Assembly: GCF_044647545.1 (NCBI RefSeq)
Contig: NZ_CP172818.1
Length of the DNA: 64,000 nt
Source of the DNA: Escherichia coli
Lineage (GTDB): Bacteria > Pseudomonadota > Gammaproteobacteria > Enterobacterales > Enterobacteriaceae
Reading direction: 5' to 3' (one strand)
Shown one piece after another: positions 44,078 through 54,428 of this stretch. How positions within the stretch are numbered: the stretch's first letter is position 1; each line of letters starts with the position of its first letter. The position numbers were made by a program, and so were the translations under genes. The notes under the pieces are model-generated. The model was given only the letters and a program-made list of their open reading frames with translations, ran no database searches and was not told the DNA's origin.

Positions 44078-44656
44078 TTAAACAGCCTGTACTCTCTGTT
44101 CATCCAGCAGTTGTGGGATAATATCGGCAGGATTCTGGGAAAGTTTACGTCTTTTTACTGCCCGGGATGGCGGCTGACATAAGCTGCAGGCAAAGCTGCC
44201 AACAGGCTGGTGAGCGTGGGTAATAAAATTGCCGCCGCAGCAGTTGCAGCTGGAAAGTTGCAGTAATCCACTTTCAACAAACCGTACCAATGTCCAGGCA
44301 CGGGTTAATGCCAGCAGCGGTCCGTCTTCTGCTTGCGGGCACTGTTCAAGGTATAAACGGTAGGCTTTGATCACCGCATCGACGCCATTACACAAGCCGG
44401 TTTTCAGTAAAAACTGCCATGCGTTACAGAACATTGAAGCATGAACGTTTTGTTCCCAGGTCATAAACCAGTCGGTTGAGAATGGCAGCATGCCTTTCGG
44501 CGGTGGGCTTCCGCGTAGTTCTTTATAGAGTTTTATCAGGCGTCCGCGACTTAACTGTGTTTCGCTTTCCAGCATCTGCAAACGAGCGCCCAGGGTGATC
44601 AATTCCATTGCCAGCTGAATATCCCGCGCTTCCTGAACAATGCTTTTTTCACTCAT
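44078..44656 (-). CDS. flhC: Flagellar master regulator subunit FlhC, 192 aa
   Basis: [33 protein letters not shown]...; zinc-binding Cys cluster. Confidence 0.97.
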
Positions 44657-44658
44657 GA

Positions 44659-45009
44659 TCAGGCCCTTTTCTTGCGCAGCGCTTCTTCAGGCTGATTAAC
44701 ATCATTCAGCAAGCGTGTTGAGAGCATGATGCCGGTATGAATTTGCTGGAGATCGTCAACGCGGGAATCTTGCGTCAATTGAGTAATCGTCTGGTGGCTG
44801 TCAAAACGGAAGTGACAAACCAGTTGATTGGTTTCTGCCAGCTTAACCATTTGCGGAAGAGTCAGTGCCGCTAACGTTGTCGCCATTTCTTCATTTATGC
44901 CGAGACGAAACATAGCGGACGCTTTGTCCTGAACAATCAGACGCTGTGCAAGTAGTAAATATGACAAGTTGATGTCATAAATGTGTTTCAGCAACTCGGA
45001 GGTATGCAT
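44659..45009 (-). CDS. flhD: Flagellar master regulator subunit FlhD, 116 aa (119 aa if the upstream MGI Met is used)
   Basis: [38 protein letters not shown]... Confidence 0.95.
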
Positions 45010-45270
45010 TATTCCCACCCAGAATAACCAACTTTATTTTTATGCGGTCTCACCGCACCCCGTGATGTCGCCGGGAAGCCCCGGTAAAAAATAATTAGCA
45101 TTAGAATAGTTGCGATAAGCTGCAATAAGCAGAACCACCTTTTTGGTTTAATAAGTCCTTACAAATAGAAAGGGGTCTTTACACTTATCTAAGATTTTTC
45201 CTAAATCGACGCAACTGTACTCGTCACTACACGCACATACAACGGAGGGGGGCTGCGATTTTCAATAATG

Positions 45271-45286
45271 TGTGATGCAGATCACA
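45271..45286. promoter_or_regulatory. CRP-binding site in the flhDC promoter
   Basis: Perfect palindrome TGTGATGCAGATCACA about 260 nt upstream of the flhD ATG, matching the CRP half-sites TGTGA/TCACA. Confidence 0.75.
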
Positions 45287-53132: not shown

Positions 53133-53636
53133 ATGGCAACCGCTGGAATGCTTCTCAAACTCAACTCTCAAATGAACCGCGAGTTTTACGCATCCAATCT
53201 CTACCTTCACCTGAGTAACTGGTGTTCTGAACAGAGTCTGAACGGCACCGCCACTTTCCTTCGCGCCCAGGCACAGAGTAACGTGACCCAAATGATGCGC
53301 ATGTTTAACTTTATGAAGAGTGTCGGCGCTACTCCCATCGTTAAAGCCATTGATGTTCCCGGTGAAAAACTGAACTCACTGGAAGAACTTTTCCAAAAAA
53401 CGATGGAAGAATACGAGCAACGTTCAAGCACGCTGGCACAGTTAGCCGATGAAGCTAAAGAACTGAATGATGATTCAACCGTCAATTTCCTGCGCGATCT
53501 GGAAAAAGAACAGCAGCATGATGGCCTGTTGCTGCAAACCATTCTTGATGAAGTGCGCAGTGCGAAACTTGCTGGTATGTGCCCTGTGCAGACCGACCAA
53601 CATGTTCTGAATGTCGTGTCGCATCAGCTGCATTGA
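53133..53636 (+). CDS. ftnB: Ferritin-like protein, 167 aa
   Basis: [44 protein letters not shown]...; ferritin four-helix fold, paralogous to ftnA. Confidence 0.9.
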
Positions 53637-53640
53637 TCGT

Positions 53641-53676
53641 CATCGGCGCTAATGCAATTGCGCCGATGAAGTTTTT
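53641..53676 (+). terminator. Rho-independent terminator downstream of ftnB
   Basis: Hairpin catcggcgc...gcgccgatg followed by a T-run. Confidence 0.6.
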
Positions 53677-53681
53677 GAGAA

Positions 53682-53716
53682 ACCGCTGCCTCATCTTTTT
53701 GAAGCAGCGGTTTTTT
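53682..53716. terminator. Second hairpin plus T6 between ftnB and yecJ, possibly bidirectional
   Basis: aaccgctgc...gcagcggtttttt abutting the yecJ stop. Confidence 0.5.
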
Positions 53717-53966
53717 AATGGGATTCGCCCTGTGGGGTAAACTTGAGTTCAATCAGCGCGATGGCTTTTTGGATTGCCCGCATGGTGACCGGGTCTGCGG
53801 CGGCGGGATGGTGAGTAAAGTCGATATTCTTCAGCTGGCTGGACATTTTTTCGCGAACTTCAACGGGCGCGATTACATCCAGAACGTCGAGAATTTGTTT
53901 GATAACCAACTGGCAAGCAACCACATCAGAAACCAGTTCCTGATCGGCATTCAGCGGCTGGGACAT
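53715..53966 (-). CDS. yecJ: DUF2766-family small protein, 83 aa
   Basis: [41 protein letters not shown]... Confidence 0.85.
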
Positions 53967-54052
53967 CGTAAACTCCTGATAGCATTTTGAAAGCCGTTAT
54001 AGTAGCGGCTTCACATCTTCAGCGATAGTCACATCCACCGTCACCAGGACAC

Positions 54053-54080
54053 AAAAAAACCTGCCGGAGCAGGTTTTTTG
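54053..54080. terminator. Bidirectional terminator (A-run, hairpin, T-run) at the azuC 3' end
   Basis: acaaaaaaacctgccggagcaggttttttg; symmetric flanks permit termination in both directions. Confidence 0.65.
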
Positions 54081-54167
54081 TTATCGGAACATATTGCCTG
54101 GCGGTACGTCTTTGAACGTCTTGCAATAGTTATTGAACATACTTTTCAGGATTTTGCGCAGTTTCAT
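54081..54167 (-). CDS. azuC: 28-aa small protein AzuC
   Basis: Minus-strand ORF atgaaactgcgcaaaatcctg... translating to MKLRKILKSMFNNYCKTFKDVPPGNMFR; below the 60-aa cutoff of the ORF track. Confidence 0.85.
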   Translation of the reverse strand: MKLRKILKSMFNNYCKTFKDVPPGNMFR

Positions 54168-54249
54168 CGCGGCACTCCGACCATTTGTTATACAGGTGTT
54201 ATTGTCTTTGCACTTATAATATGACAACCATCACAAAAATCAATCTTTA

Positions 54250-54265
54250 TGTGATGCAAATCACA
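54250..54265. promoter_or_regulatory. CRP-type palindrome upstream of azuC
   Basis: TGTGATGCAAATCACA, perfect CRP-like half-sites, about 85 nt upstream of the azuC ATG. Confidence 0.65.
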
Positions 54266-54428
54266 TAAATACCCCTTTAATGTTATAAAAATGATAATCA
54301 AAAAGCAGCCCCCCATTTCTGACACCTACAGATGGCAAGAAATAGCGCCTGCCAGGCGTCTTTTTCGGCCATTGTCGCAGCGCTGTAACACGTAAAATAG
54401 TGCTTTCTCTTACTCTTCTGGCTGGACC

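Follow-up and report, generated by a model that had tools for sequence, protein, structure and literature searches.

The minus-strand open reading frame (ORF) at 54081-54167 of the window, by which we mean the whole 64,000-nt stretch of Escherichia coli DNA analyzed here, is the characterized E. coli azuC gene, which is carried on the AzuCR (IsrB) regulatory RNA and was already known. RefSeq places azuC ("stress response protein AzuC") exactly on this ORF in more than 5,400 E. coli genomes, and a 551-nt segment spanning it is present at an identity of at least 95% in 5,419 of 5,426 complete E. coli genomes. The encoded peptide matched the NCBIfam equivalog model NF033642 (stress_AzuC) with a score of 75.9 bits as compared to a cut-off of 30 (E = 1.3e-21), with AzuC residues 2-27 aligned to profile positions 1-26 of 26. 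Together, the annotation and the profile match bear out the original prediction, which had named azuC and proposed a 28-aa ORF on the minus strand. Pfam has no model for the AzuC peptide, and no model among the Rfam 15 families searched matched the RNA; STnc370 and rsmX were sub-threshold hits driven by the terminator, reaching at most 30 bits against gathering thresholds of 54-56.

In K-12 MG1655, the equivalent features are the coding sequence azuC (b4663, 1987873-1987959) and the noncoding RNA azuR (b4434, 1987843-1988001). Alignment of the window to K-12 revealed no indels, and both the ORF and the 159-nt RNA are 100% identical to azuC/azuR. The correspondence to K-12 AzuCR (IsrB, IS092; b4663/b4434) thus covers the 28-aa protein and the RNA, and it extends to the neighbors, with yecJ downstream and yecR divergent upstream, and to the promoter, both CRP sites, the FnrS site, and the terminator, all of which are shared. 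Only three substitutions were found in 264 aligned nucleotides, none of them within the RNA: the first, central in the distal CRP site, has C in the window where K-12 has T; the second is at position -3; and the third is past the 3′ end. The RefSeq gene order is araF, ftnB, yecJ, azuC, yecR, ftnA, yecH, tyrP. The ferritin genes ftnB and ftnA, described in the original prediction as flanking the locus, are therefore both nearby, but yecJ and yecR intervene, one gene on each side.

With a high degree of confidence, we consider the best explanation of the region to be the azuCR (isrB) locus with its described promoter, dual RNA function, CRP and FnrS control, and terminator. In this model, a sigma-70 promoter (TTGATT, 16 bp, TATTAT) would start an RNA of 159-164 nt at 54209 on the minus strand, and this RNA would end at the intrinsic terminator at 54053-54080. 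AzuR would pair through a stretch internal to the ORF with the cadA and galE mRNAs and so repress them, with translation and pairing in competition. cAMP-CRP would repress transcription when glucose is absent, presumably by occupying two phased sites 30 bp apart, and CRP at the proximal site would exclude RNA polymerase. Under anaerobiosis, FnrS bound to CACCUGU in the 5′ UTR would block AzuC translation, and an A-tract pairing with the U-tail would most likely form part of a stabilizing 3′ module of the ProQ type. Identity, anatomy, and selection come from the present analysis; GlpD binding, repression of cadA and galE, and control by FnrS and CRP are drawn from the literature. The original prediction described only a small ORF, which RefSeq confirms, but it overlooked the dual-function AzuCR/IsrB small RNA (sRNA) transcript. 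The annotation of azuC dates from 2008-2010 and the dissection of AzuCR from 2022, and the discovery value of the region is small. It is useful as a positive control, in which raw sequence yielded a 28-aa gene together with the operator and terminator belonging to it, though a 60-aa ORF filter hides all three.

For comparison across species, 80 species-level Enterobacteriaceae loci were fetched using the neighboring YecJ as a probe and then searched locally for AzuC with tblastn. The resulting alignment contains 59 distinct orthologous sequences from ∼11 genera.

The AzuCR transcript and its 3′ end

Indel-free alignment to the K-12 RefSeq feature (1987843-1988001) places the 159-nt AzuCR (IsrB/IS092, azuR) transcript at 54051-54209 on the minus strand, with the transcription start site (TSS) at 54209 (K-12 1988001) and the 3′ end at 54051, just past the U-run. 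The main published source on AzuCR, which was first named IS092/IsrB, is Raina et al. 2022 (PMC8915982), which gives the same TSS, 1988001, but has the RNA 164 nt long and the ORF spanning +40 to +126. From that TSS, RefSeq has 159 nt and the ORF at +43 to +129, which is 3-5 nt off the published figures (54043-54051 and 54206-54209). The position of the -10 hexamer and the U-run favor the RefSeq coordinates.

The FnrS pairing site, CACCUGU, lies in the 5′ UTR at 54192-54198 on the minus strand, 25-31 nt upstream of the ATG, where pairing by FnrS is reported to stop translation (PMC8915982). The predicted duplex of K-12 FnrS nucleotides 1-7 with CACCUGU has an energy of -11.5 kcal/mol. In most genera of the alignment, the site reads CACCTGC. 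Seven loci (L018, L031, L037-L040, and L043) have a GTG rather than an ATG start codon for azuC (about locus positions 2270-2320). They belong to the Enterobacter clade, six being labeled Enterobacter and one (L039) Lelliottia nimipressuralis, and all seven carry AGTTGT where the FnrS-pairing CACCTGC otherwise stands. This replacement suggests that FnrS control may have been lost or rewired in the GTG-start clade.

Base pairing of AzuR represses cadA and galE, with compensatory mutations given as proof, and the pairing stretch lies within the ORF, so that translation competes with pairing (PMC8915982). Whole-length RNAduplex runs produced unrealistically long duplexes, and local pairing was therefore predicted using a 30-nt sliding scan, which located the pairing region inside the ORF at AzuCR nucleotides 86-114 (54096-54124, minus strand). 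The best local duplex with cadA positions -15 to +15 involves AzuCR nucleotides 86-114 (-27.9 kcal/mol), and that with galE positions +16 to +44 involves nucleotides 90-114 (-20.7 kcal/mol). At full length, the cadA duplex reached -75 kcal/mol as compared to -51.7 ± 6 kcal/mol for shuffled AzuCR, with none of 300 shuffles as good; the full-length galE duplex energy was no better than that of shuffled RNA. The predicted K-12 duplexes with cadA, galE, and FnrS coincide with the places stated in PMC8915982. Wobble positions within the AzuR pairing stretch vary among genera, which suggests that the sRNA function may be lineage-specific, and younger or narrower than the protein.

The findings of Raina et al. 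are restated in a 2025 review (PMC12612679), which also describes two comparable RNAs. Like AzuCR, Spot 42/SpfP of E. coli and VcdRP of Vibrio cholerae are CRP-repressed dual-function RNAs that encode a protein of less than 30 aa and pair with carbon-metabolism mRNAs (PMC12612679), although both are unrelated to AzuCR in sequence. AzuCR differs from SgrS, RNAIII, and VcdRP in that its pairing region lies inside the ORF and its two functions compete, whereas theirs occupy separate regions (PMC8915982).

Fold prediction and a repeat search identified a symmetric intrinsic terminator, A6-CCUGC-loop-GCAGG-U7, at 54053-54080 on the minus strand. Its arms, AAAAAACCTGC (54054-54064) and GCAGGTTTTTT (54069-54079), are 100% complementary and enclose a 4-nt loop. 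The minus strand folds at -18.6 kcal/mol (z -3.98) and ends in 7 U, and the plus strand folds at -15.8 kcal/mol (z -3.2) and ends in 6 U. A simple terminator scan did not list this terminator, probably because its A and T tracts pair and are counted as stem. Across the 59 sequences and ∼11 genera, the 3′ module is invariant save for the loop and one G-U variant, and its flanks vary. In the same species, substitutions at synonymous sites of azuC approach saturation (pS 0.5), and at a distance of 350 nt the terminator of yecJ shows no conservation. No compensatory changes were found in the terminator stem among the 59 sequences, and this, combined with its invariance, points to sequence-specific selection on the 3′ module. 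The unusual constraint on this module is a modest addition from the comparative data. We tentatively propose that the 28-nt module may exceed a terminator role, serving perhaps as a stability element for ProQ (as opposed to Hfq), as a two-strand insulator, or as a mimic of the FnrS 5′ end.

The original prediction had called this element a bidirectional terminator. That it is symmetric, with a hairpin and U-tract on both strands, holds, but it does not lie between convergent transcription units. A functional bidirectional terminator, one that also halts plus-strand transcription into azuC, would account for the hairpin being followed by 6-7 U in either direction and for an A-tract as invariant as the T-tract across ∼11 genera, as expected if both directions matter. 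We nonetheless regard this reading as unlikely. The locus shares the symmetric A-tract/hairpin/T-tract with bidirectional terminators found between convergent genes, but it has no convergent gene itself, as both azuC and yecJ are read from the minus strand. On the plus strand, the closest gene is ftnB; it stops at 53636, leaving 417 nt up to the A-run, and is followed by its own pair of strong hairpins, one of which carries U6 (z -7). The conservation can also be explained without plus-strand termination by the A-rich motif of ProQ ligands and the proQ-dependent level of AzuCR. AzuCR co-immunoprecipitates with both Hfq and ProQ, and its level is lower in a proQ deletion strain (PMC8915982). 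ProQ-specific RNAs are described as being marked by an A-rich motif that directly precedes the hairpin and pairs with the U-tail, a feature that disfavors Hfq (PMC7367173). Of the features given there for such RNAs (an A-rich 5′ motif, a stem of at least 2 bp, and at least 4 U), the azuC terminator has A6, a 5-bp GC stem, and U7. It thereby resembles the ProQ-ligand terminators malM-3′ and cspE-3′, in which an A-rich tract 5′ of a GC-rich hairpin partly pairs with the oligo-U tail (PMC7367173). Unlike these, AzuCR is additionally bound by Hfq, in its capacity as an mRNA target of FnrS. From these features, a ProQ-type 3′ module would explain the A-tract better than bidirectional termination, and plus-strand termination at the azuC terminator is possible.

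The FnrS target ACCUG (54193-54197; ACCUGC in most genera) recurs in the 5′ arm of the terminator (54069-54075), and this repetition makes the 3′ arm, GCAGGU, identical to FnrS nucleotides 1-6. In the alignment, the 5′-UTR target and the terminator stem showed no covariation. Long-range pairing of the UTR CACCUGC with the terminator GCAGG was considered and found no support: the Enterobacter clade with AGTTGT in its UTR keeps the terminator unchanged, three GCGGG variants do not track the UTR, and the minimum free energy fold keeps the local hairpin.

Two further strong hairpins were observed at 53640-53717, between the convergent genes ftnB (plus strand) and yecJ (minus strand). The second (∼53675-53717) has A/U tracts on either side and z values of -7 to -8 on both strands, which makes true bidirectional termination more plausible there than at azuC.

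The azuC promoter and its CRP-type sites

A promoter scan identified a -35 hexamer, TTGATT, at 54238-54243 and a -10 hexamer, TATTAT, at 54216-54221, both on the minus strand and separated by a 16-bp spacer. The TTG of the -35 is invariant in 59/59 sequences, each position of the -10 is conserved in 55-59 of the 59, and TATTAT lies 7 nt upstream of the K-12-mapped TSS. Upstream, at 54250-54265, is an exact match to the TGTGA-N6-TCACA consensus, TGTGATGCAAATCACA, centered at -48.5 from the TSS (the distal CRP-type site). It belongs to a longer inverted repeat at 54246-54269 with perfect 10-nt arms, TTTATGTGAT (54246-54255) and ATCACATAAA (54260-54269), around a 4-nt center, GCAA, that is not symmetric. 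The description of this site as a perfect CRP-type palindrome was thus correct as to the exact consensus and the 10-nt arms, but the non-symmetric center means that there is no perfect 16-mer. The TGTGA-N6-TCACA core occurs twice in the 64-kb window as compared to 0.05 occurrences expected.

A second, proximal CRP-like site, TGTGAtggttgTCAtA, is read on the minus strand at 54220-54235 with one mismatch to the consensus. Its center is at -18.5, which places it between the -35 and -10 hexamers and partly on top of them. Just three sites in the window, this one included, come within one mismatch of the consensus. The original prediction did not name it. The distal and proximal centers are 30 bp apart in all aligned sequences, with no indels between them. 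In both sites, the half-sites (GTGA and TCAC/TCAT) are invariant in 59/59 sequences and the central six bases vary freely, with 3-4 different bases at the central positions. Fixed half-sites with a free center and free flanks are, judging from this alignment, the classic footprint of a dimeric operator. The promoter and the regulatory elements are each under purifying selection.

Two predicted CRP sites are drawn in Fig. 1A of PMC8915982, citing Hemm et al. 2010, and the same source cites Hemm et al. 2010 for the finding that deletion of crp raises AzuC-SPA levels. On the basis of this literature, CRP acts as a repressor at azuC. Neither site stands where CRP canonically activates, and the proximal one covers part of the core promoter, an arrangement that fits the published repression. 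We infer promoter occlusion as the mechanism of repression.

FNR sites (TTGAT-N4-ATCAA) share the geometry of CRP sites, from which they are distinguished by TTGA/TCAA in place of GTGA/TCAC. An alternative is that the distal palindrome is mainly an FNR site for anaerobic repression, possibly competing with PhoP and NarP, and not a CRP site. In Ekdahl et al. 2025 (PMC12266141), FNR motifs are assigned to K-12 1988039-1988058, corresponding to 54247-54266 in the window. Mutating the motif is reported to cause derepression, as is knocking out fnr, and the paper cites ChIP-seq signal for FNR close to the promoter. The authors further place PhoP and NarP motifs at 54254-54271 and 54268-54284, respectively, mutation of each of which derepresses, and find that changes in IPOD-HR occupancy fall mostly outside annotated CRP sites. 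The reporter data do not discriminate between CRP and FNR, because mutation of the motif would destroy CRP binding as well. On the other side, AzuC is higher in the crp mutant (Hemm 2010, via PMC8915982), and the bases that distinguish CRP from FNR sites are G and C in 59/59 orthologous sequences. Since these bases are fixed, we retain CRP as the factor for which the site is selected and judge a principally FNR site to be distinctly improbable. FNR may be an additional ligand, with the palindrome a shared CRP/FNR operator. Evolution has held the palindrome to a CRP-type identity, which is relevant to the recent assignment of this site to FNR.

The sole other perfect TGTGA-N6-TCACA in the window, TGTGATGCAGATCACA at 45271-45286, precedes the flhD start by about 255-270 nt (the flhD/flhC ORFs occupy 44078-45018 on the minus strand). 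We take it to be centered at about -71.5 of the flhDC promoter, assuming a 198-nt UTR, a position consistent with its being the known CRP activation site of that promoter.

The azuC coding sequence, its product, and its distribution

The 28-aa azuC ORF (54081-54167, minus strand) begins with ATG and ends with TAA, and it translates to MKLRKILKSMFNNYCKTFKDVPPGNMFR followed by the stop. Its boundaries agree between the translation, RefSeq, the identity to K-12, and the NF033642 match. A Shine-Dalgarno sequence, GGAG, is located 7 nt 5′ of the ATG at 54175-54178 on the minus strand, with each position conserved in 56-59 of the 59 sequences. As the original prediction had stated, the ORF is hidden by a 60-aa cut-off; the ORF listing contains the azuC frame only as a 48-aa version from an upstream TTG at 54227. 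This extension was rejected, as its start is upstream of the TSS.

An ORF of 28 aa is by itself uninformative, as 61 ORFs of at least 20 aa overlap the 3.5 kb here, and significance must instead come from conservation. The tBLASTn search suggested in the original prediction recovered AzuC in 58 of the 80 species loci, and the ORF is intact in all of them (58/58 loci having azuC), being 27-29 aa long and starting with ATG or GTG. When the 54 distinct nucleotide versions were compared, 10 variable columns fall at first and 11 at second codon positions, as compared to 26 of 27 at third positions. The pN/pS ratio is 0.16 in the azuC frame and 0.99-3.5 in the other sense frames. The AzuC protein is under purifying selection.

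Chance ORFs of this size are common and the locus was originally described as an sRNA, IS092/IsrB, both of which would be in keeping with a purely noncoding RNA in which the 28-codon ORF is fortuitous. We consider this extremely improbable given the pN/pS of 0.16 with variation at 26/27 wobble positions, the retention of start, stop, Shine-Dalgarno sequence, and length in 58 species, the equivalog match in NCBIfam, and the published detection of AzuC both as an SPA-tagged protein and by ribosome binding (PMC8915982). Coding by the plus strand, with the 48-aa antisense ORF at 54078-54224 as the real gene, can be dismissed as practically negligible and the ORF was rejected: its frame is open in 58/59 orthologous sequences, but its pN/pS is 1.9, a promoter and Shine-Dalgarno search found neither for it, and the frame stays open as a consequence of sense codon content, as an antisense stop requires TTA, CTA, or TCA on the sense strand, codons that a 28-codon ORF with two Leu and one Ser will seldom contain.

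AzuC is a small, basic, and amphipathic membrane protein, with the helix computed here and the membrane localization taken from PMC8915982. Residues 1-20 have a hydrophobic moment (muH) of 0.526 as compared to 0.234 ± 0.119 for shuffled sequences, 1.4% of which reach 0.526, and the net charge of the full 28-aa protein is +6. The C-terminal motif TFKDVPPG-MF is invariant. AzuC is reported to be membrane-associated, to co-purify reciprocally with GlpD, and to raise its dehydrogenase activity (PMC8915982).

Among the 80 loci, AzuC was found directly upstream of yecJ in 58, in Escherichia, the Citrobacter amalonaticus/sedlakii group, Enterobacter, Lelliottia, Leclercia, Kosakonia, Silvania, Huaxiibacter, Pseudescherichia, Pseudenterobacter, and Pseudocitrobacter. 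In Salmonella, the C. freundii complex, C. koseri, and Buttiauxella, tblastn of these loci detected neither azuC nor a remnant of it. The comparative data add that azuC is constantly immediately upstream of yecJ (DUF2766; 53715-53966), which follows ∼110 nt downstream on the same strand in 58/58 azuC-positive species, and this adjacency persists also in loci that lack ftnA, yecR, and ftnB as neighbors. A clear sigma-70 promoter was not found in the 85-nt azuC-yecJ spacer, which makes read-through of the terminator into yecJ conceivable. In one locus, that of Escherichia sp. MOD1-EC7003 (L002, about positions 2231-2500), neither azuC nor yecR is present, ftnA directly adjoins yecJ, and just ∼50 nt of the azuC-yecJ spacer is retained, an arrangement that reads as a natural azuCR-yecR deletion.
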